64,000 bases of DNA from Candidatus Latescibacterota bacterium (GCA_965116885.1 OZ220741.1:4928001-4992000), one strand, 5' to 3'. Shown: positions 50,479 to 64,000, counted from the first letter of the stretch. The notes: generated from the letters alone by a model not told the origin. Numbers and translations are program-made.

Positions 50479-52394
50479 GTCCGTACCTCCCGCGCACTCA
50501 AATACGCGGCGTAAAAATGTTCGAGCAAAAGCAAAATGAGCAAAAATCCGAGCACCCAGCGACCGTATTCATACACAATCGAAAGATCAGCCGATTGTTC
50601 GCCATCTCTCTGAAATAACACGGGCGTATCGCACAGCCGAATCTCAAATTCCGCGGGCGTTATCCGCGCCAAATCGCTCTCTCGTTCTGCGACATTAACC
50701 GATGCGATTTGCGTCCCCCACTGATATACGCCGGGCGCGTGAAATATGCGCGCATCGCCAACTACAGAATCCGACCCCTCTGGTCCCATAACTCGCTCCA
50801 CCGCATCAGACGTATTTATGGCATCGCCCACCTGATAATCTGTCTCGATCTCCCGATCACCAGATAAATAGCGCAACGTCTCGTGCAACAAAGGTACAAA
50901 CCGCGGCGTCCGCGCCAAATTTGACCGATCAAACCCCATTCCACCGCCCCAGACCACAATGCGACCTTCTCCTATCCTGCCTTCGACAATAGCGGGCATC
51001 AAATCGTCGTATTTTGCCAACACCGCGGCTGAACTGTCGGTGCTAATAACGTGGTAATTCTCATAGCGCACAGACGAAAAATCGTTAAACCGCGCCCCCT
51101 TGAAAGGACGAAAAATGGGATGCTCCAAATCGACCCACGCCAGCGCGGCATAACCCGCATCCGCCACCCCTGAAACCCGGATATTCGCACGCGCAAGCAA
51201 AGCATTTACAGATTGAATATCGGCATCTCTGTGAAGCGGCAAAAACAGCGCACCGCCTTCTTCGACATAATCTGCAAACTCACTTACAGAAGTCACATCC
51301 TCAGCTATCACCACCGACCCCATAAGTTCTCCAGACCAGATCAAACGCCAGTCCGCGCCTTCGGGCACAGCAGCTTTGAGCATAAACTGCGTGACCTCCG
51401 AAGTGTTCAACACCGCGATGGGATGTTGCGGTTTGGCAAGCCATGCAAAAAAACGGCGATCATCTCGCTGTAATCCATCTGCTCCTGCGAGCGCGACATA
51501 TCCGTTTATTCCCTCCTCCAGAGGCACAGAGAAAGCCACCTGTGTGGCATTGCCCGGCAACACCGTCACATCGCGCGATTCTACCACTTCTCCATCAACC
51601 ACCAGTTGCGCGGCAAGTCCCCCTTGCCCAAACCAGTTTCGCACCCGAGCGCGAACCCGCAAAACATCGTCCTTTACAGCCCGCACAGCGAGCGCGTCAA
51701 CCGACGCATTAGACACCTGGGAGATCCCCACATCCACCGCTTGAAACTCAATCGCGCCCGGCAACCGCCATCCCATATCGGACACCGGCATGCCACTCGC
51801 CTGAAAATCGCTGATCACATGCACCACGCGCTTCACCTGCGCAGTATCAGCCGCAAAAACATGCTCAACCGCCTGAAGAGCCAAAACATAATCCGTATGC
51901 CCCCACGTCACATCGGCGATCTCAATAGCGTGTCGAACATCTGCCACATCACCCGAAAGCGGCACATCCACCACGGCCTGCTGTGCAAATCGCACAAACC
52001 CGACCCGATCCCCCGGCTCCACAGTCTCCAGCACGGATTTCGCCCCCATCTTCGCGCGCTCCCACACCCCATCATATCCCATACTCAGCGAAACATCCAT
52101 CGCAATCACATAATCAGTCGTTCCCGAAGACACCGCCTCTGCATTCAACATCATCTCTTGAAAAGGTCGCGCAAACGCAAGTGCCAGAGCGACCAGCACC
52201 GCCATTCGCAACAACATCAACACAATGTGTTGAACGCGCCTGCGCTCAATCACCTCGCGTTTGACATCGGGCACAAACATCAAACTGCTAAACCGCACAG
52301 TCTCGCGCTCGGGACGGCGAATGCGATGCACAAAATAGGGAATGCCAATCAACGCAACCCCAAATGCAAATAGCGGGACGAGCAACCCCATCAC
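50475..52394 (-). CDS. BatA N-terminal + vWA domain protein
   Basis: IP..VH....FSSLMF....LLRM..L..LALAFARP; DVSLSM MIDAS; ISDFQ. Confidence 0.85.
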   Translation of the reverse strand: MMGLLVPLFAFGVALIGIPYFVHRIRRPERETVRFSSLMFVPDVKREVIERRRVQHIVLMLLRMAVLVALALAFARPFQEMMLNAEAVSSGTTDYVIAMDVSLSMGYDGVWERAKMGAKSVLETVEPGDRVGFVRFAQQAVVDVPLSGDVADVRHAIEIADVTWGHTDYVLALQAVEHVFAADTAQVKRVVHVISDFQASGMPVSDMGWRLPGAIEFQAVDVGISQVSNASVDALAVRAVKDDVLRVRARVRNWFGQGGLAAQLVVDGEVVESRDVTVLPGNATQVAFSVPLEEGINGYVALAGADGLQRDDRRFFAWLAKPQHPIAVLNTSEVTQFMLKAAVPEGADWRLIWSGELMGSVVIAEDVTSVSEFADYVEEGGALFLPLHRDADIQSVNALLARANIRVSGVADAGYAALAWVDLEHPIFRPFKGARFNDFSSVRYENYHVISTDSSAAVLAKYDDLMPAIVEGRIGEGRIVVWGGGMGFDRSNLARTPRFVPLLHETLRYLSGDREIETDYQVGDAINTSDAVERVMGPEGSDSVVGDARIFHAPGVYQWGTQIASVNVAERESDLARITPAEFEIRLCDTPVLFQRDGEQSADLSIVYEYGRWVLGFLLILLLLEHFYAAYLSAREVRT

Positions 52395-53320
52395 ACACCT
52401 CCCGACCGCCTGCTCGGCGTGATCAGCCCATCGTTGCGCCGATGTAAAAATCGATGCAACGCCATATCCAGAGGTTCAGAACACGCGAACTCTTCAATAT
52501 CGATCTCCGCCGATAGACACGCTTCTCTTATCGCGTCAAAATGTCGCCTGCGATTTTCCAAATAGGCTTCGCGCACCTCCTCTGGCACGGCAAATTGCTC
52601 GCGACTATCCTCGGCATCTATCAGCGTCACCGACCGATCAAAGGGAAACGTCTGCTCAGCCGGATCGCTCACCTGCAACACCAGCACATCGTGACGCTGC
52701 GCCCTCAGGGAACGCAAATGCAAAATCATCTCATCTGCCGGATGCAACAAATCGCCGATCAACACCACCATGCCCCGCGCAGGCAACACATCACCCATCA
52801 CCCGCAACGTCCCCGCCGTATCCGTCTCTTCACCCGCGGGCCTCAAATTGTCGATCTCCATCAAAATGCGATGGCGTTGTCCGTCTCGACGACGCGCAGG
52901 CACATGCGCAATCAACTCCCGATGATAAGCGGCGAAACCCACGGCATCTCCCTGACCGGAAGCCAGCATCACCAGACACGCCGCCAGCATCTGTGCATAC
53001 CGGAACTTGCTCACCTCTCCCGAACCATAATCCATAGACGCGCTGCAATCCAGCAAAATAGTAGAACGCAAATTGCGCTCATCCTGAAACTGCTTCACGT
53101 GCAGCCGATCACTCCGCCCATACAGCCGCCAATCCACAAAGCGCAAATCATCGCCCCACGCATAGGGACGATATTGGGCAAACTCTACCGACGCCCCATG
53201 GTGAATACTGCGATGCGCCCCACCCTGCAGCCCGGAAATAACCGTACGCGCCAAAAGCTCCAAATCCGCAATACGCGCCAACTCAGCAGGATCGAGATAT
53301 GTATAAATAGAATTTTGCAT
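52391..53320 (-). CDS. DUF58 family protein
   Basis: G.HRS...GASVEFAQYRPY..GDDLRFVDW, DCSASM. Confidence 0.92.
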   Translation of the reverse strand: MQNSIYTYLDPAELARIADLELLARTVISGLQGGAHRSIHHGASVEFAQYRPYAWGDDLRFVDWRLYGRSDRLHVKQFQDERNLRSTILLDCSASMDYGSGEVSKFRYAQMLAACLVMLASGQGDAVGFAAYHRELIAHVPARRRDGQRHRILMEIDNLRPAGEETDTAGTLRVMGDVLPARGMVVLIGDLLHPADEMILHLRSLRAQRHDVLVLQVSDPAEQTFPFDRSVTLIDAEDSREQFAVPEEVREAYLENRRRHFDAIREACLSAEIDIEEFACSEPLDMALHRFLHRRNDGLITPSRRSGGV

Positions 53321-53404
53321 GTGACTAAAAACTAAAAGCTCCTCCGCCCAGGACATCCCTGATAGAATCAATCAGGTCATTTGCAGGCGTGACGAGTAGC
53401 AATC

Positions 53405-53436
53405 GTCATTGCGGCATGCTTAAAGCCGCAATCCAG
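53405..53436. repeat. REP-like palindrome (left)
   Basis: GTC-ATTGCGGC-ATGCTTAAA-GCCGCAAT-CCAG. Confidence 0.55.
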
Positions 53437-53488
53437 TTGTTTTTTCTCATTACTGACTTTGGACCTATCGCGCATCCTGTTTACCTGT

Positions 53489-53917
53489 TCATTCTTTACG
53501 TAATGGATTGCTCTCTGGAGAAATCAAATTCACAGTCGGAAAATCTGTTTTGTAGCGCGCTGCATCTCGGGTTAGCAGGGGTAATTTTTCAACTGAGGCG
53601 TGTGCGCCTATAAAAAAATCGGGTAATGGTGAACGTCGTATTCCACCGCGCTTACGATATGCCAAAAACGCCTTGCCAGCGGAAAAAAGAGCTTCCTTCG
53701 GAATTTGGCGCATCTGAAATTTGCCCTCTTTTAACGCCTGCTCTAATTCTTCAATATTTTCATAACCGATTGACACTTCGGCGTAAATGATCGGATTGAT
53801 GAAAAACTCGTGAGTATCGCGGTACTGCCCAAGCATTTGTAAAGACCAGTCTGCCCAAACGGGATCGTTTTCAAAGACATCTAAAATGACATTGGAATCC
53901 ACGAGCATACCCGTCAT
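53489..53917 (-). CDS. vapC: VapC PIN-domain toxin
   Basis: LVDSNVILD, YAE, PLPDFFIGAHA, LTRD. Confidence 0.92.
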   Translation of the reverse strand: MTGMLVDSNVILDVFENDPVWADWSLQMLGQYRDTHEFFINPIIYAEVSIGYENIEELEQALKEGKFQMRQIPKEALFSAGKAFLAYRKRGGIRRSPLPDFFIGAHASVEKLPLLTRDAARYKTDFPTVNLISPESNPLRKE

Positions 53918-54129
53918 TTTTCACCCCGGGTCAATGCCATAATCTCATCCGTAGTCATTTTGATTGTAGCAGACCCCAACAGACGCTTATAAGGATTTTC
54001 TTTTGACTTTTTTACCAGATAAACACGACCATTTTCTTCCACAAAATCAACTTCTGATTTTGGTCCAATTCCCAATGCTTCACGCACCTTTTTGGGAATG
54101 GTCACCTGTCCTTTGCTCGTCACACGCAT
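53914..54129 (-). CDS. vapB: AbrB/MazE-type antitoxin (VapB)
   Basis: MRVTSKGQVTIPKKVREALG; RBS AGGAGG; 4-bp overlap with vapC. Confidence 0.9.
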   Translation of the reverse strand: MRVTSKGQVTIPKKVREALGIGPKSEVDFVEENGRVYLVKKSKENPYKRLLGSATIKMTTDEIMALTRGEK

Positions 54130-54280
54130 CGCACATCCTCCTGAAAAGTGATATGTATGCATCAGTTATATTTGTAAAATATGCAAAAATAGGCTTTAAT
54201 ATCACAGAAGTTTCGGGACTATTGTATATTGTTCTACAACAAAAAATATGTCTTTAGAGCCAAATAAAGGAGTAAGCCGT

Positions 54281-55561
54281 ATGATTGAAGTGCTCTCCAA
54301 ACCTGCTGATCAAATCCGTATCAGCGATATTAAATCGTTGATTGATTCGCAAGTTCCTGAAAGTGAACAAATCGAATTCAAAGAAACTCTGCCAGCGAGA
54401 AGAAACTCCACCGATCCATGGATCGAAGGCAACAATACACTTGGCAATCAGGCAAAAGACAAGATACTCGAAGAAGTCGTCGCCTTCGCAAATGCGTATG
54501 GTGGCGTTTGCTTGCTGGGTATAAAAGAGTCCAGTACAAAACCGTCAGTTGCTGCCGAAATTTCACCAATTCCGCGATGTGCAGAGTTAGCAGAAAGCCT
54601 GAAGTTGGTATTCCGAGACTGTGTGGACCCCCAACTTCCTCAGATCGAAATTATCCCAATAAAAACCAATGGTGAAAGCGGTGTGATTATCTGTCGTGTT
54701 GGGCAGTCCCGGCTGGCACCTCACCGCGTTACAAGAACACTTGTCTGCCCTATCCGACGATCTGATCGATGCGAGAAAATGTCAATGCGAGAAATCCAAG
54801 ACCTGACACTGAACATATCACGCGGACTCGAACGCTTGGAAAGACGACTTTCGGAACGCTCGGAACGTTTTCACCAAGAATTTGACCGCCTTAACGAACC
54901 AGAAAAATCATTTGGTATCCGAGCCACGGCCATACCCGTTGGAGACGAAATCCGATTTGACCACGTATTCTATCAGGGACGAATTATCGAGGATCTCTCT
55001 GAACCGTGGCGGTCAGCTTTGCAAAGTAAAGACGGCACTCAAATATACAACGAGGCTCAGGATACCGAACCTACCCATTGGCGACCAATACTACGCGGTG
55101 CCCGGGCGGAATTCTATAATCAGGAAATTTACACTCGTAAACCGACTGAACTAATCTACCGAGAAATTCACTGCGACGGGCTGATTGAATTGGGACATTT
55201 ATCGACTTATAATCATGGAAGGGCAATTTCTCTCCTGCCAGCTTATCCGCTCGTTCTATTTGCGAACCTGATCACTCAAGCCCATCGTGTGAGAATTCAA
55301 GCCAGTGCTCCTATGGCAGAATATGCCATTGAAGTGGAAATACATGTTAAAGGGGTCCCTGCAATAGTACCATGGAATAAATATCGTATATCGTCAGGGA
55401 AATTAGATCCTGGCACAATAACATTCCCGCGCTACTCGTTCGGTGATTCCGACGAGGGCAATGATCTCCTTAATCTGTTTTACCGCGATTTCTTGAATTC
55501 TCTTGGTCAAGACATCGGTCCTGAAGAAAACGAATTGGAGATACCGGATTGGACCAGTTGA
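54281..55561 (+). CDS. Schlafen/AlbA_2 domain protein with uncharacterised C-terminal domain
   Basis: ESEQIEFKE, EVVAFANAYGG.CLLGI.E, APH; RBS AAGGAG. Confidence 0.82.
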   Translation: MIEVLSKPADQIRISDIKSLIDSQVPESEQIEFKETLPARRNSTDPWIEGNNTLGNQAKDKILEEVVAFANAYGGVCLLGIKESSTKPSVAAEISPIPRCAELAESLKLVFRDCVDPQLPQIEIIPIKTNGESGVIICRVGQSRLAPHRVTRTLVCPIRRSDRCEKMSMREIQDLTLNISRGLERLERRLSERSERFHQEFDRLNEPEKSFGIRATAIPVGDEIRFDHVFYQGRIIEDLSEPWRSALQSKDGTQIYNEAQDTEPTHWRPILRGARAEFYNQEIYTRKPTELIYREIHCDGLIELGHLSTYNHGRAISLLPAYPLVLFANLITQAHRVRIQASAPMAEYAIEVEIHVKGVPAIVPWNKYRISSGKLDPGTITFPRYSFGDSDEGNDLLNLFYRDFLNSLGQDIGPEENELEIPDWTS

Positions 55562-55618
55562 GAATTGAACAAAGTCGAGCATAAGTGTTCTTTCAAATAA
55601 ATTTATTGTCTTACTCCA

Positions 55619-55644
55619 CTGGACTCCTGCTTCCGCAGGAGTGC
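55619..55644. repeat. REP-like palindrome (right, inverted relative to 53405-53436)
   Basis: CTGG-ACTCCTGC-TTCC-GCAGGAGT-GC. Confidence 0.55.
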
Positions 55645-55738
55645 TGCGCAATGGGTATCAAAATAGTCGCAAATCACTGTTATACAGTAAATTTATTATA
55701 AGTGGAGCATGCCATCTGCAGACGATCACAGAGGCCAG

Positions 55739-56419
55739 TTACATATTATCTTTTGCATGTGTAGCCTTCATTGCAGCAACCTTTCGCGGGTTCGCCTTGG
55801 TAAAGATCCAGCCTTTGACGTAACGCATAAGTATTTGGGTTGATGCACGAAATGCAGAAATTGCTTCAAGGTAGATTTCATCGGGAAAATCTATGTCACC
55901 TGAGCCAATTTTGAGAACATATCCAGATCGTTTTTCATGATCTGCGTAATCAAATGTATTGAAGAAATGCTTATCAGACAGGTGGACATATCCCGACGTG
56001 TTTTTGTAAACTAACTCAATCCAAGGACATTCCTTTGCCAATTGAGTGACGAGATAGTGATCAGTCATGCGTTGACCATTTCGATCTTTCATATTGCGGA
56101 TGTGTTTACCCTCAAGGACCGAAACAGCAAACTCGTGTGGTTTATCAACAATGAATCCAGCGAAAACTCGGAGTGCCGTATCCAATTGTAGCCGAACCAG
56201 TGGTCCAGCACAAATGAAATTCCTATCATGGATTAATGTACGAAAACCAGCGGATAAGGCGACCGAGCGATTGATGGCAGCGCATACCAAAAAGTCGAAT
56301 CCATACAGTGCACCGTCATGTCCCTGCATCATATCGGCTACCCGGTCGAGCATTGTCTTTTCATCAGCTTCAAGATTGGTCAGTGCTACTTTAACTATGT
56401 CTGATGGATGTTGTGACAT
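55739..56419 (-). CDS. Hypothetical all-helical protein, HEPN/DUF5677-like
   Basis: LVR.QLD..LR and Y...SGYVH motifs typical of divergent HEPN proteins. Confidence 0.5.
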   Translation of the reverse strand: MSQHPSDIVKVALTNLEADEKTMLDRVADMMQGHDGALYGFDFLVCAAINRSVALSAGFRTLIHDRNFICAGPLVRLQLDTALRVFAGFIVDKPHEFAVSVLEGKHIRNMKDRNGQRMTDHYLVTQLAKECPWIELVYKNTSGYVHLSDKHFFNTFDYADHEKRSGYVLKIGSGDIDFPDEIYLEAISAFRASTQILMRYVKGWIFTKANPRKVAAMKATHAKDNM

Positions 56420-56431
56420 GGCAATTTTGGG

Positions 56432-59400
56432 TTAGGCCATCAAATGTTCCAGAAGAACATGGGAAACAGAGCGAACTGTTCCGGTAGAAAGATCTAAAGC
56501 AATTTCTGCAAGATGTTTGCCTTCGGATTGACGCTTTATCTCAGAGCGTATCCAAGTTCTCAGTCGTTCTGGTTGATCATCGTTTTGTAATAAAAAACAA
56601 GGAAAGTTCACTTTTTCAAAACTTGTAGGTTGCGCCTCAAGACGACTGAAAGCAAGCTCACGGACTTGCTTATCGCGCACGAATCGAGTAGCTACAGCAC
56701 GCGAGCATGAAGGCGGAAACTCCCAGATATCACCACGGAACTTTGCCATTATTGTACTCACCTTGGCCACGAATTCATCAGGGGGAGAACTCGCCGCTAG
56801 CAAGTAAAACCCAGCCGGAAACAGGAGTCTTGGCATTTCAACCTGTTCACTTAGTTGTTTCCAAGCTTCCGAGTCTGGCCAGCCTGCACTGAGAGAGATA
56901 ACCAGTGCATCAGAAATATTCCCTTGCATTACGAGGGATTCGAGCTTGGTGAGCGTTTCGGTATCATTGGCGAATTGTTCAGCGAGTATTTCTGCCGCAA
57001 CAATGCTTGCTGCCACACCTGTCCAATGACCTACACGAAAATCATGCACAAGAGAAAGATTGCGAACAAGGGAGATGAGACATAATTCGCGTAAACGCTG
57101 CGAGCCTCGCCACTCCCGGGCGCAAAGCTGCAGCAATGGGGGGGTTGGCCTTTCTTTATGCCCTCCCTTAAGTCTATTAATAATTTTATTCAACAAATTG
57201 GGGTCACTCGTACGTGTGGCCATTTCCGTTAGGAACTCGTACGGCACCCCACTCAATTGGGCCCAAAACCTCTCGTCAAACACCTTCAATATGCGATTCC
57301 AGCGGCGGATTAAATGTGCGGCTAAGCGGAGATTAGGTTTTAGTATTCCACCAAAGTCTCTGGCCTTCTCTCCATCTTCCAACCAGAAAGTTTTCACGAT
57401 GTCGAGTCGGTCAAGTTCGAGTAGGGCGGAAAATGCCGCTTGGCGACGTTCGCTGAAATCTGGCCCACGAGCACGCAAGCCTTCTTTGAGTTGAACAAGA
57501 AGACCAGAAGATATTTCACTACGTCGTTTCACAGATGTAATATAGCCGATTGCCGCCGAGGTCTTCACATTCACGTCCATATCTTCATCGTACTTAGACA
57601 ACAGTCTATGTGCGAAGTCATCTTCGGGACCTAAGCGGGAGAGTCGATCTACAACGATCTGTCGGAGATGAGTGGGAAATGAACTACATAGCTCAAGAAT
57701 CTTGTAACGAATCTCTTCATTTGAATTATAAACCTTCGCAACGGCTCGCAAGTCACCTCCGCGATTGTGCAAATGATATGACGCTATCTCATGCCCTTTT
57801 GGATGGTTAGGAAAATATTCAATTAAGTTACCTATCCCCCCAAATAATGTATCGGATAGGACCTCATCAGTACACTTACTTACTACTACTTCTACGACTT
57901 CCTCGTCAAGCGCATTTGCCCCAAGCTTGGCCATTCCGACTAAAACACGTTGATCTATGAATTCTGATTCCTCGCGCAACATCTCTAATAAACGCCTTCG
58001 ACAAAGTTTTTTATCGGGAAGAATATCGGGTAGAAGATCTGGAGCGCGCTTAGCCACGTCACTATTGGCGAATCGCATTAAGGCAGTCGCTGCTTCCTCG
58101 TCCTGCATGTCCCATCCTTGTAATAACCACCGGGCCTGGTACTCCGTGATGACACCAGTCTTGTCGTTGGCTTTAAGCAAATATCCTTTTGCACGCTCTG
58201 AGCACGAGATTAGACAGAGTTCAAAATCCCCAAATAATCGATCAAAATTTTTCCGCGCGATCCAGTCATCGACAGCTAAACCTAAATTTTGATGACCAGA
58301 AAATGCCTTTACAAGATGTCCCCAGTTAAAATGCAAGCCAAGTAAATGGTTAGGGTAATCTTCTGTTTGGAACAGATGTGCGATGATCTCCGCCACCTCG
58401 TCGTCTTGCGGAAATCCTTCCAACAGTATAATTCCGGCTTCTTCCCAATCGAAAACTCTTTCATTAAAATAGTGCTTGGTAACAACACTCCTTATCGCTT
58501 CGCGTTTCACTTCAAGGTCGTCGGGCCAACCGGCTATAAGTGCCCGGACTCGGTCTTCTTTCCAATACCATGAACCAGAACTGTGCTTCTGCGAGAGATT
58601 TATCAATATTTTGCGATCCTCCGTATCATGTTCATTGCGTTTTACGCGATGAATTAGCGCGACACTTTGTAATGCATTATCAGTAGATAACCGACTGTCA
58701 TTTAAGATTTTAGTAAGCCGGTGGTCAGTCCCCCAACCAAGACAAAGCGCATGAAGGGCACAAGCCAGCAGACGTGATTCTGCAGGCATGAAAAGCAGTT
58801 CAAACAGGCGTTCTCCAATAGATGGATCTTCACCAAAAACTTTAGCAAGGGATTCTGCTGCGGCTTTCCGATTTTCATCTTCTTCGTCAAGCAGTCCGCG
58901 CCAAAGTATGGCTTGAGTCTCGTCATTTTTAGGCCATGTTGCAACAGCCTCATAGAACCCGCGCAGATAGGAATATCGCAAGGGATACCAGCGTTGAATG
59001 CGGGACTCTACAAGTGAGCGCATCGCATCGGATTTAAGTCCATCCAACGCGAGTTCAAGAAGCCGCTCACGAGTTCGTTTGTGAACACCAGCTTCGATAA
59101 TCTCAAACGTATCTTCCGCCAATCTTCTGGCGATACTTGCTGAACAATGGAGATCACCAAAGGCTACTTCTGCCAAAAAACTCTGCCGGGATAATTCCAT
59201 TTCTGGCGGTAGTTCTATATTTTCTACGATATCGACGAAATCATCCACCTCTCCATCGCGAGTGTTCAGATGGCATAGGCATAAAAAAACATCGTGCCAC
59301 TGAGGATTTTCAAAGTAATTCTTTACAAACTCCTTTTGCTGTTCAAACGGCAGATTCGATAGGTGTTTCGCTGCGAGAAATTCTTGAAATGATCGATGAA

Positions 59401-61408
59401 GAAATCCAATATCTACAGGTGATTTCTCGACAAGAATCCCAACTGTTTCAGCACCAATAGTGAGGAGTTCCTCTGCGATTTCCAGCGCTTCTGCATCATT
59501 TTTGTATAAGTGTGTCGAACAGAAATCCTGAAGCGCTTTCTGGGCAACAGTTTTATCGAGGGCATCGCTTCCCGGTGAATCATGAGTTTCCCAAGCCAGC
59601 CGAGCCAATGCCCGCTTACGATTTTCCTCACTCAAACGTCCAGTGGTAGTCTCACGGGCGTGAGCCGCCTTTTCACGACGTTTGGGCTGTTCTTCTAACA
59701 AGAGACGTGTCAATTCCTCGTATGCTTTGAATCTGCTGCGAGGGAGATGTATTCTCTGAATAGCGAGAGCAATAAGGCCGTTTAACAGTAGGGGCACTTC
59801 TGCTAAACGGGATAAACGGACATCGCGGTGAAGGTCTCGTATGTGTTCGGCGGCTTCGGCTTTTGCTCTTGTTTCTCTCATGGCAATAGAATCATCATCT
59901 TCATCCTGAGAAGCAAAGGCGTTTGACCGATGCAGGAACCATCGTTCTGCCAAGACATGTTGTTGCTCATTGGTCAAACCGGCGAGCCGAGCTTTACGCC
60001 ATTTACTACTTAGTCCACCAATGCGCTCATAACCCAGTGGACGACTGCTGGCGATTGCCGGCACATTCCGATCTCCTACGAAATGTTCAAGCAGAGTAAG
60101 TGCTGTCCGAGCGGCACTCTCATTACTCCATTCATCAAGTCCATCTACAAAAAGCAGCAGACGCGAATCCTCTAATGCCTGCTGAACCAATGTAATCAAA
60201 TCTTTTCCAGCAGAGACTTTACGAAGCCAAGTCGTGAGGACATCTGAGAGCGAACTCTCTGTTTCTGACTCACCGACAAGTCGCGTCCACATGGCAAATG
60301 GAACCCATACAGGCAGGTATTGCCCCCAACGACGCGCGAATATCTCATAACGAGGCTCAGGACTCAGAAGATCAAGTAATATACAACGAAGGAGAGTACT
60401 CTTGCCGATACCAGGATCTCCTATTATAACTGATTGATCAGAGTCCGAAAGCCAATCAATTGCAGAGCGGCGCACTACCGAGGGGCGGGATATAACTCGT
60501 GTTCTTCGGGGGGAAGATGAGTCGTCGGTTGTTACATCAGTATGCGGTCGTTGATTGTCCTGGCCTTCCAATGAATAATTAATCGTTTCGGTACGAGAAA
60601 CTTGCTGTTCCTCCAAAATTTCGGGGATATGGGAAACCTGCTGTTCTTCCAAAATTTCAGGAGGAACAAACCGATCAATTAAAGAAAGAGGTTGAAAGTC
60701 GGAGTTGATGGAACCAGCAAGAGCAGGGAGACCGGGATCAGTGATCTCAAAATGTTGTGTATAGCAATGCCGGAGTAGCTCGCGTAGTCGTATAACCTCC
60801 TCAAGTTTTAAGCGACGGCTCGACAGTTTGTCAGCAGCTTCTTCACCACAGAATATCCGCACCCACTCACGCCCAAAAAAGTCATCTACTAAATCCGGAT
60901 GATCTTTCACTCGTTTAGAGATTTGCGTAATTCCAAGCGGCAGGAATTGGATATTTCGTTCGCGGAGGCGATCACCTTGCGCTTCGATTGCCTCTACAAG
61001 ATTAGTCGCTTCGGTTTCCACTGAGACTGCAAGTACAAACTCATCGGTTTTTGATGCCCAAGAGCCGTCCAAAAAATCAGAGACTGCTTTCTTTATTAGT
61101 GAGGGTCGAAACTGTTGATACCGTTTACACTGCCAAACTGAATATTTGGACGATTCCCCCTTACGGACATATATGTCTATACCTTCTTGGTCTTGTCCTG
61201 GAAGCCCATACACCTGACATCTTTCTACATCATCGCCACGCTCCGCGAGACGAACACACAGACTCTCAAAAGATTCCCAAGATAATTCATTTAACGGGAG
61301 GATCTGTGCTCGCTCGCTTACAGGAGGCGAAATGTGTGATTCAGGAGGAACCCATACCCTCGTGTATTTCTTTAACTTTGCCGTCATAGTGAACCTTGTA
61401 TCACTCAA
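56432..61408 (-). CDS. STAND/NACHT NTPase with N-terminal Mrr-like PD-(D/E)xK nuclease and C-terminal helical repeats (NLR/Avs-like)
   Basis: FESLC...YG..GQDQEGIDI...QCKR nuclease; Walker A GDPGIGKST; Walker B LLFVDGLDE; VPLLL; FLHRSFQEFLAA. Confidence 0.85.
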   Translation of the reverse strand: MSDTRFTMTAKLKKYTRVWVPPESHISPPVSERAQILPLNELSWESFESLCVRLAERGDDVERCQVYGLPGQDQEGIDIYVRKGESSKYSVWQCKRYQQFRPSLIKKAVSDFLDGSWASKTDEFVLAVSVETEATNLVEAIEAQGDRLRERNIQFLPLGITQISKRVKDHPDLVDDFFGREWVRIFCGEEAADKLSSRRLKLEEVIRLRELLRHCYTQHFEITDPGLPALAGSINSDFQPLSLIDRFVPPEILEEQQVSHIPEILEEQQVSRTETINYSLEGQDNQRPHTDVTTDDSSSPRRTRVISRPSVVRRSAIDWLSDSDQSVIIGDPGIGKSTLLRCILLDLLSPEPRYEIFARRWGQYLPVWVPFAMWTRLVGESETESSLSDVLTTWLRKVSAGKDLITLVQQALEDSRLLLFVDGLDEWSNESAARTALTLLEHFVGDRNVPAIASSRPLGYERIGGLSSKWRKARLAGLTNEQQHVLAERWFLHRSNAFASQDEDDDSIAMRETRAKAEAAEHIRDLHRDVRLSRLAEVPLLLNGLIALAIQRIHLPRSRFKAYEELTRLLLEEQPKRREKAAHARETTTGRLSEENRKRALARLAWETHDSPGSDALDKTVAQKALQDFCSTHLYKNDAEALEIAEELLTIGAETVGILVEKSPVDIGFLHRSFQEFLAAKHLSNLPFEQQKEFVKNYFENPQWHDVFLCLCHLNTRDGEVDDFVDIVENIELPPEMELSRQSFLAEVAFGDLHCSASIARRLAEDTFEIIEAGVHKRTRERLLELALDGLKSDAMRSLVESRIQRWYPLRYSYLRGFYEAVATWPKNDETQAILWRGLLDEEDENRKAAAESLAKVFGEDPSIGERLFELLFMPAESRLLACALHALCLGWGTDHRLTKILNDSRLSTDNALQSVALIHRVKRNEHDTEDRKILINLSQKHSSGSWYWKEDRVRALIAGWPDDLEVKREAIRSVVTKHYFNERVFDWEEAGIILLEGFPQDDEVAEIIAHLFQTEDYPNHLLGLHFNWGHLVKAFSGHQNLGLAVDDWIARKNFDRLFGDFELCLISCSERAKGYLLKANDKTGVITEYQARWLLQGWDMQDEEAATALMRFANSDVAKRAPDLLPDILPDKKLCRRRLLEMLREESEFIDQRVLVGMAKLGANALDEEVVEVVVSKCTDEVLSDTLFGGIGNLIEYFPNHPKGHEIASYHLHNRGGDLRAVAKVYNSNEEIRYKILELCSSFPTHLRQIVVDRLSRLGPEDDFAHRLLSKYDEDMDVNVKTSAAIGYITSVKRRSEISSGLLVQLKEGLRARGPDFSERRQAAFSALLELDRLDIVKTFWLEDGEKARDFGGILKPNLRLAAHLIRRWNRILKVFDERFWAQLSGVPYEFLTEMATRTSDPNLLNKIINRLKGGHKERPTPPLLQLCAREWRGSQRLRELCLISLVRNLSLVHDFRVGHWTGVAASIVAAEILAEQFANDTETLTKLESLVMQGNISDALVISLSAGWPDSEAWKQLSEQVEMPRLLFPAGFYLLAASSPPDEFVAKVSTIMAKFRGDIWEFPPSCSRAVATRFVRDKQVRELAFSRLEAQPTSFEKVNFPCFLLQNDDQPERLRTWIRSEIKRQSEGKHLAEIALDLSTGTVRSVSHVLLEHLMA

Positions 61409-61441
61409 ATTTGGACAATGTGGTCATGTCTAACTATTCTT

Positions 61442-62194
61442 TTAATGCGTCGTCATAGGAGATAAGGTTGTTCCAGAGTCATCAGTTGCGAATAGGTCGA
61501 GAGATCGGCGAATCGTGGCAATCAATTCTTTCTTGAAACCCTCGTCATTATCTCTGTCCCAGAAAACGGTTGTGCAGTGATTGGTATCGAAATGGGTGCT
61601 TTTCTCATTGAACTTCTTTTGTTCACAGACATAGATGACAGGCTTGCCCAGCCCTTCAGCATAACCAGCTTCCCAATACGCGCCAAGATTATCATGGGAG
61701 AGTTCAGCAATCACAAATGCTGCATCTCTAATCTGGACGCGCATGATGTTGTCGATAACTCCGGCTTGAGAAACATCGCGCATATCTACAAGGTCGTAGC
61801 CGGTATTTTCTTTTACCGTCGGTTTCACAACACTTTGAACGAAATTGTCCAAATCAGTATCGCCGAACTGCATGGCAATAAATCCGTAGTTTCCCCCGAA
61901 CTGACCTCGTTTTTCCGCTTCATACTGCTCCCATCCCCTCAAACTAAGGGTGACAAAAGAAAAAATCATTCCTCTTCTCCCCGACACTCGTTGAGGTTCT
62001 GACATACGGAGAAAGTCCTGTTCGTATAACTCTTTAACGATTTGTATGAAAAATTCTCTACTTGGGGAATCAGCGATCTTGGGATCACACGGAAGATTTC
62101 TGATAGGTTCCCCCGATTCCGATACCCTGTCCCCAACATATCGAATTAGATTCATTGCCTGCACTGCAGGGCTACTGAAGTTGTTAGTGGTCAA
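61442..62194 (-). CDS. Winged-helix + nucleoside 2-deoxyribosyltransferase-like (NDT/DRHyd) protein
   Basis: LSLRGW wHTH end; FIAMQF, VIAELSHDNLGAYWEAGYAEGLGKPVI, HFD. Confidence 0.8.
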   Translation of the reverse strand: MTTNNFSSPAVQAMNLIRYVGDRVSESGEPIRNLPCDPKIADSPSREFFIQIVKELYEQDFLRMSEPQRVSGRRGMIFSFVTLSLRGWEQYEAEKRGQFGGNYGFIAMQFGDTDLDNFVQSVVKPTVKENTGYDLVDMRDVSQAGVIDNIMRVQIRDAAFVIAELSHDNLGAYWEAGYAEGLGKPVIYVCEQKKFNEKSTHFDTNHCTTVFWDRDNDEGFKKELIATIRRSLDLFATDDSGTTLSPMTTH

Positions 62195-62203
62195 TATAGT
62201 CTC

Positions 62204-63232
62204 CTACACCAGATCCGCTTCTGGCGGCTGAATCGTCTCCAGCAATCGATTGATAACATCCTCGGCATTTACGCGATCGGCTTCGGCTCTAAAATTGGTC
62301 AAAATGCGATGGCGCAACACATTGGGCGCAACTGCTTGAACATCGCCAAAAGAAACGTGATATCGCCCCTTGAGCAGTGCCCGTGCCTTCGCCCCCAGCA
62401 ACAACCCCTGCACGCCGCGTGTGCCCGCGCCCCAACTCACCCATGAAGTCACAAAATCCGGCGCCGTATCGCCCGGACGGCTCGCCTGCACCAGTTGCAC
62501 CGCATAACGCGCCACAGGCTCGGCAACCGGAACCATCCGCACCAACCTGGCAAAATCGAGCATATCAGCCCCCGAAAACACTGCCTCGACCTCTTCAGCT
62601 TCAATCGACGTCGTGCGCGTCGCCACATCCAGCTCTTCATCTTCCGCCAAATAATCGATCCAGATATTCATCATAAAGCGATCCAGCTGCGCCTCGGGCA
62701 GTGGATAGGTCCCCTCCAACTCAATGGGATTCTGCGTCGCCAAAACGTAAAACGGTTGCTCCAGCGCGTGCAACCGCCCTCCTATCGTCACCTGCTTCTC
62801 CTCCATCGCCTCCAGCAGTGCAGCCTGCGTCTTGGGCGGCGTGCGATTAATCTCATCAGCCAACAAAATATGCGTAAAAATAGGACCCGGAATAAACCGC
62901 AACTCGCGGTGCCCCCCCACGCGGTCCTCGTCAATAATCTCTGTACCCGTTATATCCGAAGGCATCAGATCCGGCGTAAACTGCACGCGCTTAAAATCCA
63001 AATCCAAAATTTTCGCAATCGTACGCACCAGCAACGTCTTCGCCAAACCCGGTGCCCCCGTCAACAAACAATGACCGCCGCTAAACAACACAATCAGCAA
63101 CGACTCAATAACCTCATCCTGCCCGACGATCACCTTGCGAACCTGCTCCATCATCCGCGCGCGACCATCGCGCAACTTGTCTATCGCCTCGGCTTCAAAT
63201 GGCGTTTCCTGTACTTGAATGGTTTCTCCCAA
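62204..63232 (-). CDS. moxR: MoxR family AAA+ ATPase
   Basis: GAPGLAKT, RVQFTPDLMPSD, LADEINR, ATQNPIE, PLPEAQLDRF. Confidence 0.95.
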   Translation of the reverse strand: MGETIQVQETPFEAEAIDKLRDGRARMMEQVRKVIVGQDEVIESLLIVLFSGGHCLLTGAPGLAKTLLVRTIAKILDLDFKRVQFTPDLMPSDITGTEIIDEDRVGGHRELRFIPGPIFTHILLADEINRTPPKTQAALLEAMEEKQVTIGGRLHALEQPFYVLATQNPIELEGTYPLPEAQLDRFMMNIWIDYLAEDEELDVATRTTSIEAEEVEAVFSGADMLDFARLVRMVPVAEPVARYAVQLVQASRPGDTAPDFVTSWVSWGAGTRGVQGLLLGAKARALLKGRYHVSFGDVQAVAPNVLRHRILTNFRAEADRVNAEDVINRLLETIQPPEADLV

Positions 63233-63250
63233 AAATCACCTCAAATGTTT

Positions 63251-63328
63251 CGAATCAACGAATCAACGAATCGAAGCTCACACTGAATTTGGGTGGCGGG
63301 GTGGGATTCGTCTATTCGTCTATTCGTC
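63251..63328. repeat. Inverted pair of octamer tandem arrays
   Basis: (CGAATCAA)x~3 at 63251-63274 and (ATTCGTCT)x~3 at 63306-63328. Confidence 0.7.
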
Positions 63329-63329
63329 C

Positions 63330-64000
63330 TCAATGCGTCATCGCATACACCACGATATTAATACCCATCGGATACGCTTTGGGCGCGGAAAAATTGCGAA
63401 AATACTCGTAATTCTCGCCCTCGCGCTCCCAGCCATCACCCAAATCTGTATTGTGCATCACCACCACCATCAACCGCCCGTCCTGATCAAAAATGCCTTT
63501 GCAGTGCGCCTCAGAACCGTATTCGTCATAACGCCCTGCCCAGCCCTCATAAGTAATCCCCGTCGATTGCCACTCCCAGAAACTCCCCAGACCCGGCACC
63601 TGCGGCACCTCCTTAATATCAAACACAATGTGAAACAACTCGTGATCCAGCGGAATATCCACCAGGGGGAATTCATCGGGCGGCAACACCTGAGAAATCT
63701 CGTACACCCAATTTCGCCAGGCATCATCCCCCCAGAAATCATCCACCAGCAAAAAACCACCGCGCAACAAATACTCGCGCAACCCCTCCTGCTCGGACAC
63801 ACTCAAAGCCATCCGCCCCACTTCGAGCATATAAACAAAAGGATACTTAAACACCTCGGGATCGTCCAGACGCACAATCACATGCTTAAATTGTCCGTCT
63901 TCTGTGCGATTGACATTGAGCGTTGTAATTTGAGACAACCGCAGCGAAAAATTCTCATCCGACTCGGGATAATCCACCGACCAACTGCCCCTTCGCCGCC
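63330..64000 (-). CDS. DUF4159 family protein (5' end beyond the window)
   Basis: WSVDYP, LREYLLRGGFLLVDDFW, NTDLGDGWE, GINIVVYAMTH; frame open to the window edge. Confidence 0.88.
   Translation of the reverse strand, partial: RRRGSWSVDYPESDENFSLRLSQITTLNVNRTEDGQFKHVIVRLDDPEVFKYPFVYMLEVGRMALSVSEQEGLREYLLRGGFLLVDDFWGDDAWRNWVYEISQVLPPDEFPLVDIPLDHELFHIVFDIKEVPQVPGLGSFWEWQSTGITYEGWAGRYDEYGSEAHCKGIFDQDGRLMVVVMHNTDLGDGWEREGENYEYFRNFSAPKAYPMGINIVVYAMTH

Follow-up and report, generated by a model that had tools for sequence, protein, structure and literature searches.

Antiviral receptors of the STAND class, including the Avs proteins, generally join an effector domain, an NTPase module and a sensor in one tripartite polypeptide. 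In the sections of Lee et al. 2026 consulted here, at least 90 defence-associated STAND families are distinguished, their sensors being mostly helical repeats that bind conserved phage proteins, and Mrr is named among the effector domains that seeded the survey. The bNACHT25 type, in the part of the Kibby et al. preprint consulted, follows the same plan: an N-terminal Mrr-like nuclease precedes a central NACHT module with intact Walker A and Walker B motifs and a long C-terminal region, and the protein is encoded by a single, sporadically distributed gene. Small genes may also lie tightly inside or behind restriction-modification (R-M) and ATPase systems, as reported for the "embedded" HEC genes in the available part of the Payne et al. 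2024 preprint. Here we describe a locus of three genes, termed A, B and C, in a stretch of 64,000 nucleotides (nt) from Candidatus Latescibacterota bacterium (GCA_965116885.1 OZ220741.1:4928001-4992000), hereafter the window, with all coordinates counted from its first letter. B resembles the bNACHT25 type in domain content and distribution, the two properties compared, A carries a domain of the NDT/TIR superfamily, and C is a helical protein whose relatives, like those of A, lie tight against R-M and ATPase systems.

The three genes probably represent a small, recently assembled defence cassette of autonomous genes, located in a hotspot within a MoxR-DUF58-BatA operon; every activity named below, and phage defence itself, is what we infer for them. 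This reading rests on two properties: the genes are associated only where B is at least 80% identical, and each family has common contexts of its own, which together point to a cassette that has recently spread as a block and not to an old, co-evolved system. Relatives of C were collected at 61 loci, scanning one genome per species. Only one of these holds both A and B, and it is the same insertion in a congener (L001); B is missing from 60 of the 61 and any A-like match from 59. All 80 metagenomic loci of B relatives (29-50% identity to B) were examined, and A was found at none of the 56 with at least 800 bp upstream, C at none of the 45 with at least 700 bp downstream, and no recurrent neighbour across the 80, near-duplicate contigs aside. 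In the phylum, four genomes with B, G128 (74% identity), G146 (71%), G055 (61-63%) and G102 (29%), were inspected: neither A nor C occurs within the 18-20 kb examined around B, and two of them, G146 and G102, carry A and B hundreds of kilobases apart. Homologues of B on plasmids of Enterobacter hormaechei and Deinococcus aetherius are also solitary. By distribution, the only test applied, B relatives therefore occur without conserved partner genes in 80 loci, four genomes and two plasmids. Viral contigs provided 27 A-like, 6 B-like and 12 C-like loci, some of them duplicates, and none of the 45 includes a second member of the trio; two of the six B-like loci are full length and duplicate each other. 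The association of the trio is thus limited to B of at least 80% identity and is gone at 71-74% and below, and the conserved co-occurrence across lineages by which a multi-gene system is recognized is not seen for A-B-C.

Several claims of the first-pass annotation bear on this reading. It had described three co-oriented genes separated by 33 bp (A/B) and 12 bp (B/C), which the open reading frame (ORF) calls on the window confirm, all three lying on the minus strand, and it had placed them inside an insertion, in agreement with the low G+C content and the empty sites of congeners described below. Its view of the locus as defence-type genes in one tight, co-oriented cassette is supported by the domains, the layout and the behaviour of the block as one insertion/deletion unit in the genus, and no PADLOC model matches the trio, in line with the statement that the combination is not a named system. 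The proposal that the trio acts as one system is not supported: it was to fall if the homologues never co-occurred elsewhere, and the counts given above come close to that outcome, each family having its own, different usual neighbours.

The G+C content is 0.42-0.49 across approximately 53500-62000, compared with 0.54-0.58 on either side, and this low-GC insertion interrupts a MoxR/DUF58/BatA operon whose BatA and DUF4159 genes, identified with Pfam, lie beyond the MoxR and DUF58 flanks. Of 20 congeneric genomes, 11 have MoxR and DUF58 directly adjacent, representing the empty site. VapB(C) occurs alone or as a remnant in three (G076, G083 and G087) and is the sole cargo in G076, VapB is accompanied by unidentified cargo in one (G088), a Schlafen gene adjoins MoxR in one (G089), two (G080 and G090) lack B and C but retain remnants of A, behind which Schlafen and VapBC follow, the full cassette is present in one (G073) and the content of the last (G084) is unidentified. 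Read-derived contigs from three further runs also contain the empty-site joint 53322|62203, and short contigs from two further runs span the A/B boundary at approximately 90% identity; no single read-derived contig covers the whole cassette. The MoxR|DUF58 junction of this Bat-type operon is therefore an integration hotspot with layered cargo, in which VapBC is innermost, followed by Schlafen, an older layer than the cassette, and then A-B-C.

Comparison of occupied sites indicates how the outermost layer moves. The congener locus L001 carries the same insertion at the same site, with 95% identity to the window for MoxR, 84% for A, 92% for B, 95% for C, 80% for Schlafen, 95% for VapBC and 98% for DUF58. 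G089 joins window position 62203 to 55573 through a 70-nt unrelated spacer, so that exactly 55574-62202 is absent. In G080, A is retained to approximately 61481 and the sequence resumes at 55565, and the remaining A reading frame carries two TGA stops and one TAG stop; in G090, where position 62089 is joined to 55443 inside the Schlafen gene, the junction is a deletion. These three junctions, together with the stops in the G080 copy of A, indicate that A-B-C was acquired or lost as a single block. The junction sequences, viewed without a formal repeat search, show no evident direct repeats at its ends.

B matches the Pfam profiles Mrr_cat (PF04471; 23.4 bits against a cutoff of 21, residues 39-114), Mrr_cat_2 (19.6 bits) and NACHT (PF05729; 39.4 bits against a cutoff of 26.7). 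Conservation was evaluated in an alignment of 31 family members extending down to 27% identity. In the nuclease domain, D78 and the Q93-C94-K95 triplet are nearly invariant, which together with the profile matches provides the D...(D/E/Q)xK catalytic residues of an Mrr-like nuclease; the Q variant of this motif is mentioned in the part of the Payne et al. 2024 preprint consulted. In the NTPase module, G330, G333, G335 and K336 of Walker A are invariant and S337 nearly so, and D422, G423, D425 and E426 of the Walker B region are invariant, so that B combines a NACHT profile match above cutoff with an intact Walker A (GxxxxGK[ST]) and intact Walker B acidic residues. The C-terminal ~1160 residues are conserved from end to end and have no Pfam match in the window protein, HEAT_2 (PF13646) being precomputed on several homologues. 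B has the effector and NTPase parts of the tripartite layout of the Avs and other antiviral STAND receptors, with the C-terminal region as the presumed sensor, but matches no PADLOC Avs model, nor any other PADLOC system model; the best matches are weak and fall on unrelated ATPase models (mad8, PtuA and PDC-S73, E 0.0018-0.037), in a PADLOC-DB v2 library that dates from 2023. It differs from the bNACHT25 type in that its family, of ~1640 residues, has a C-terminal region of its own. The family comprises 123 matches, mostly full-length proteins of ~1630-1660 residues, down to 29% identity, and is present in 6 of the 168 genomes of the phylum and in one of the 20 congeners. In G055, the B homologue is interrupted by an IS21-type element encoding IstA (rve) and IstB (L151, 10623-12948).

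By analogy with these receptors, B is best described as a putative single-protein receptor related to bacterial nucleotide-binding leucine-rich-repeat (NLR) proteins, and as the likely core of the locus. Its C-terminal region would, judging from the family, recognize a protein that a phage supplies or perturbs; oligomerization of the NACHT NTPase would then activate the N-terminal Mrr-like nuclease, which would cut DNA and stop the infection, probably at a cost to the cell.

The protein encoded by A scores 26.9 bits against Nuc_deoxyrib_tr (PF05014), slightly below the cutoff of 28.8, and the same domain is precomputed on many close homologues; it also matches the PADLOC "Effector TIR" model (9e-8), and an NCBIfam search gave no match. 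An AlphaFold2 model with a mean pLDDT (predicted local distance difference test score) of 84.6 has a helix/strand domain at its N terminus and a flavodoxin-like domain at its C terminus; for the latter, Foldseek returns the SARM1 TIR domain (1.4e-4), DNPH1 (3.1e-4) and 2'-deoxyribosyltransferases (NDT; 4.2e-4) with no clear preference. N-glycosidase effectors of the NDT/TIR superfamily, namely ThsB-type TIR proteins, the PADLOC "Effector TIR" proteins, SARM1, DNPH1 and NDT, share this fold with A (Foldseek E 1e-4 to 1e-3), and the glutamate of its G-x-Y-W-E-A-G-Y-A motif, E175, is invariant in 36 aligned sequences. A thus combines a predicted flavodoxin-like fold with a conserved, presumably catalytic glutamate, as expected for the NDT/TIR superfamily, whereas no Thoeris- or retron-type partner lies nearby, the N-terminal domain is its own and variable, and the Pfam NDT match is just below threshold. 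Retron NDT effectors hydrolyse NAD+. Between the window and the congener the catalytic domain of A is 92-96% identical and residues 26-100 (61895-62119) are 56-72% identical, which identifies the N-terminal domain as the variable part of A. This hypervariable domain is the likely specificity part, and the N-glycosidase-type domain containing Glu175 the likely effector, which would hydrolyse NAD+ or a nucleotide. Some members of the family carry an additional N-terminal cysteine-rich extension that resembles a zinc ribbon.

The A family is large, with 4353 matches, many of them at 60-70% identity in other phyla, and is found in 37 of the 168 genomes of the phylum. The neighbourhoods of A homologues were surveyed by scanning 43 of 74 neighbouring ORFs, from 22 of 28 loci (L155-L182). 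Relatives at 53-68% identity follow MmeI-type genes in seven loci and precede an ABC ATPase in eight, and all three of the ABC ATPases tested match PADLOC HEC-01 models with E values down to 5e-177. At L157-L161 and L166-L168, where flanks of 1.5 kb are available, the HEC-01-type ATPase gene directly follows the A-family gene, and at L160 and L161 an MmeI-type enzyme is also encoded ahead of it. These settings recall the embedded HEC genes, from which A and C differ in having no HEC or PDC match in PADLOC-DB v2.

C has no match in Pfam, PADLOC, NCBIfam or PHROGs, its profile retrieves no Protein Data Bank (PDB) sequence at E values up to 10, and Foldseek of its model against the PDB returns nothing at E <= 0.001. 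The AlphaFold2 model is all-helical (pLDDT 91.7). VIA-align places HEPN structures on this model (2hsb, Z 8.8; 1wol, 8.1; 4nqf, 7.8; 5yep, 7.8; 7ae2, 7.6), but these scores are interleaved with those of unrelated helical bundles (G-protein-coupled receptor and rhodopsin structures), which reach Z 9.5. Residues D42, R51, R76, D80, R84, Y138, S142, H146, S148 and H151 are conserved, H146 being present in 263 of 267 sequences. The HEPN assignment of C is not supported, as the defining Rx4-6H motif is absent: K139 and N140 stand ahead of H146 in the window protein, and among 263 relatives with the conserved histidine an arginine lies four to six residues upstream of it in only 97. In the Protein Atlas, the clusters nearest to C have DUF5677 or DUF6988 on 10-39% of their members, and 8 of 37 family members weakly match each of these two domains (best E 0.01 and 0.049), whereas the window protein itself matches neither at E values up to 1. 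On sequence grounds, C belongs to a large uncharacterized family, with 1664 representative clusters at 50% identity, that is probably distant kin of DUF5677 and DUF6988, and the cluster of conserved Arg/Asp and Ser/His residues is suggestive of an enzyme. Of the descriptions in the first-pass annotation, the NDT-like A and the nuclease-NACHT B are borne out by these analyses and the HEPN-like C is not; the motifs that it listed, WEAG (with E175), QCK (residues 93-95) and YVH (with H146), are all present. Fusions were sought in 13 longer C-family proteins, and GNAT, helix-turn-helix and SnoaL-like domains were found in three only, possibly as gene-call artefacts.

Upstream neighbours of C relatives were scanned with Pfam at 53 loci, 25 of which gave a match and 28 none. 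They include Eco57I/MmeI-type enzymes (L004, L017, L021 and L059), ResIII (L005 and L010), HsdR (L032), a KAP NTPase (L028) and Schlafen proteins (L041 and L043), as well as MT-A70, HNH, PLD, RtcB and others. C would be the third independent gene of the cassette, and its family habitually borders large defence genes of the restriction or NTPase kind on their 3' side; A and C are presumably both independent small genes of defence islands. One Dehalococcoidia metagenome-assembled genome (MAG) holds two copies of an operon (L005 and L010) that encodes an N6/N4 methylase, a PIN protein, ResIII and a C-family protein, and in which the last 4 nt of the ResIII gene are shared with the C gene. In an RNA-repair operon at L012 (6043-11685), RtcB and RtcA are separated by a C-family gene, and a Ro60/TROVE-vWA gene is found upstream; this single case hints at an RNA-related role. 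A Cytophagales MAG (L032, 2474-8920) has a C-family gene between a type I HsdR gene and a NACHT gene that differs from B and carries an NA-iREase2 domain.

A number of observations weigh against the autonomy of the three genes and lend themselves to other explanations. Within the genus, A-B-C behaves as one unit, as illustrated by G089, from which precisely that segment is missing; the genes are tightly spaced (33 and 12 bp), and a promoter would not fit between MoxR and A. Co-residence of A and B elsewhere was inferred from identical longest contig sizes of protein records, a comparison in which gene order is not seen. Sizes are common to A-like and B-like records at 8517 nt (68% and 88% identity), 32790 nt (80% and 80%), 44625 nt (a Poribacteria MAG; 73% and 83%) and 10277987 nt (67% and 81%), and at 764727 nt to A-like (68%), B-like (83%) and C-like (84%) records, which suggests that A-like and close B-like genes share contigs in other genomes. 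These matches, drawn from four or more assemblies that include one of another phylum, would be expected if A and B formed a two-gene module in a young subclade of B (at least 80% identity), with A modulating, priming or backing up the NACHT protein, for example as a second effector or guard, and C as an add-on. The 33-bp gap and the short contigs of two further runs that bridge the A/B boundary are consistent with such a module, and the decay of A in G080, where B is lost, would fit an A that is useless without B, simple decay explaining it equally well. We nevertheless consider the module unlikely, given that B at 71-74% (G128 and G146) and below occurs without A, that A relatives at 53-68% have other partners, and that a shared arrangement of such shallow depth may merely reflect block transfer; moreover, the contrast between the variable domain of A (56-72%) and B (92%) in the congener suggests that A is exchanged independently of B. 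Comparable doubt applies to the idea that C-family proteins are plug-in accessories of whichever large defence enzyme is encoded upstream (type IIG, I or III R-M, KAP or, here, NACHT), and that inhibition of this enzyme would set them free to act as back-up effectors or regulators. In 11 of the 53 loci a same-strand upstream ORF ends at most 25 bp from the C relative or overlaps it, according to crude ORF calls, and 10 of these 11 encode defence-type domains (NACHT, Eco57I/MmeI in four, ResIII in two, HsdR, KAP and MT-A70), a coupling, also seen in the 12-bp B/C gap, that could mean that C works with the preceding gene. The C relative beside a different NACHT gene at L032 also weighs against autonomy, as do a distant A-like match (25% identity) 2.7 kb from the C relative of L008 and, weakly, a DUF5677 gene, only a distant relative of C, that was tested alone in Enterococcus faecalis and was not among the five ORFs for which protection is reported in the part of PMC12632615 consulted. 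Against accessories of this kind, 42 of the 53 loci have no such coupling, many neighbours are ordinary genes, and the part of the Payne et al. preprint consulted shows independent defence by genes that are embedded in defence systems.

A broader version, in which C-type and perhaps A-type genes are helpers that couple 3' or 5' to any adjoining large defence enzyme as back-up effector or guard, and A-B-C, moving as a block and apparently across phyla, is a three-part NLR system in formation, has a similarly small chance of being correct. That all three products already form one integrated system, with the NACHT receptor gating two extra effectors, is very unlikely. The layout as a single transcription unit, the block-wise mobility and the 764727-nt contig, which probably holds all three genes, speak for it; yet the trio is found in 1 of the 61 C loci, in none of the 80 B loci and in no viral contig, and all three families are far more common apart than together. 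Least credible of all is a function unrelated to phage defence, for instance NACHT-based signalling that serves some other end. None of the three families has been studied by experiment, and defence and non-defence STAND clades are interspersed in the part of Lee et al. 2026 consulted, but B carries a nuclease effector domain and is sporadic in the phylum, the hotspot is shared with VapBC and Schlafen genes, and the neighbours of A and C relatives are mainly R-M and other defence genes. A recent cassette of three autonomous genes therefore remains the preferred reading. Under it, B extends a well-described class by a further Mrr-NACHT receptor family, and the locus cleanly illustrates how cargo is layered at a defence hotspot within a housekeeping operon. 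The A family (~65% identity across phyla) and the C family are large, conserved and found almost only beside defence genes, and both are absent from PADLOC-DB v2; if either protects alone, it would be a new single-gene defence family, and if it depends on the neighbouring large enzyme, it would point to a general accessory principle.

The features of the locus and its flanks are summarized in Table 1.

Table 1. Features of the A-B-C locus and its surroundings (window positions, or residues where marked aa).
Feature	Position	Strand	Remarks
Gene A	61442-62194	-	250 aa, TTG start
A, N-terminal domain	~aa 1-95	-	variable; winged-helix look
A, C-terminal NDT/TIR-superfamily domain	~aa 100-232	-	E175 within YWEAGYAEG
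Gene B	56432-61408	-	1658 aa, TTG start
B, Mrr-like PD-(D/E)xK nuclease domain	60968-61294	-	aa 39-147; Mrr_cat, Mrr_cat_2, conserved columns
B, NACHT NTPase module	59933-60436	-	aa 325-492; PF05729, invariant columns
B, C-terminal region, presumed helical-repeat sensor	56435-59932	-	aa 493-1658, ~1160 aa
Gene C	55739-56419	-	226 aa, ATG start
A-B-C block, insertion/deletion unit in the genus	55574-62202	.	G089, G080 and G090 junctions
Host MoxR-type AAA_3 ATPase	62204-63232	-	Pfam; orthologue in 21/21 genomes of the genus
Schlafen AlbA_2 gene, convergent with C	54248-55561	+	PF04326, 49.8 bits; occurs without A-B-C in G089 and G080
VapB-like (MazE/AbrB family)	53914-54162	-	Pfam
VapC (PIN)	53489-53917	-	Pfam; toxin-antitoxin pair with VapB
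Host DUF58 gene, usual downstream neighbour of MoxR	52391-53371	-	PF01882, 171 bits; adjoins MoxR in 11/20 congeners

The TTG start of A lies 9 bp past the MoxR stop codon, and an AGGAG sequence 8 nt ahead of this start overlaps that stop codon; with A beginning directly after MoxR, the cassette is left without an intergenic region upstream. A consensus scan of 53300-63400 gave no more promoter-like sites (13, with 13.6 expected) or terminator-like sites (6, with 9.5 expected) than the shuffled controls. In its native place, the block appears to depend on read-through from MoxR. The Schlafen AlbA_2 protein of the preceding layer has 437 residues, the C-terminal 250 of which contain no recognized domain, and at just 80% identity to the congener copy it is, together with A, among the fastest-changing genes of the island.

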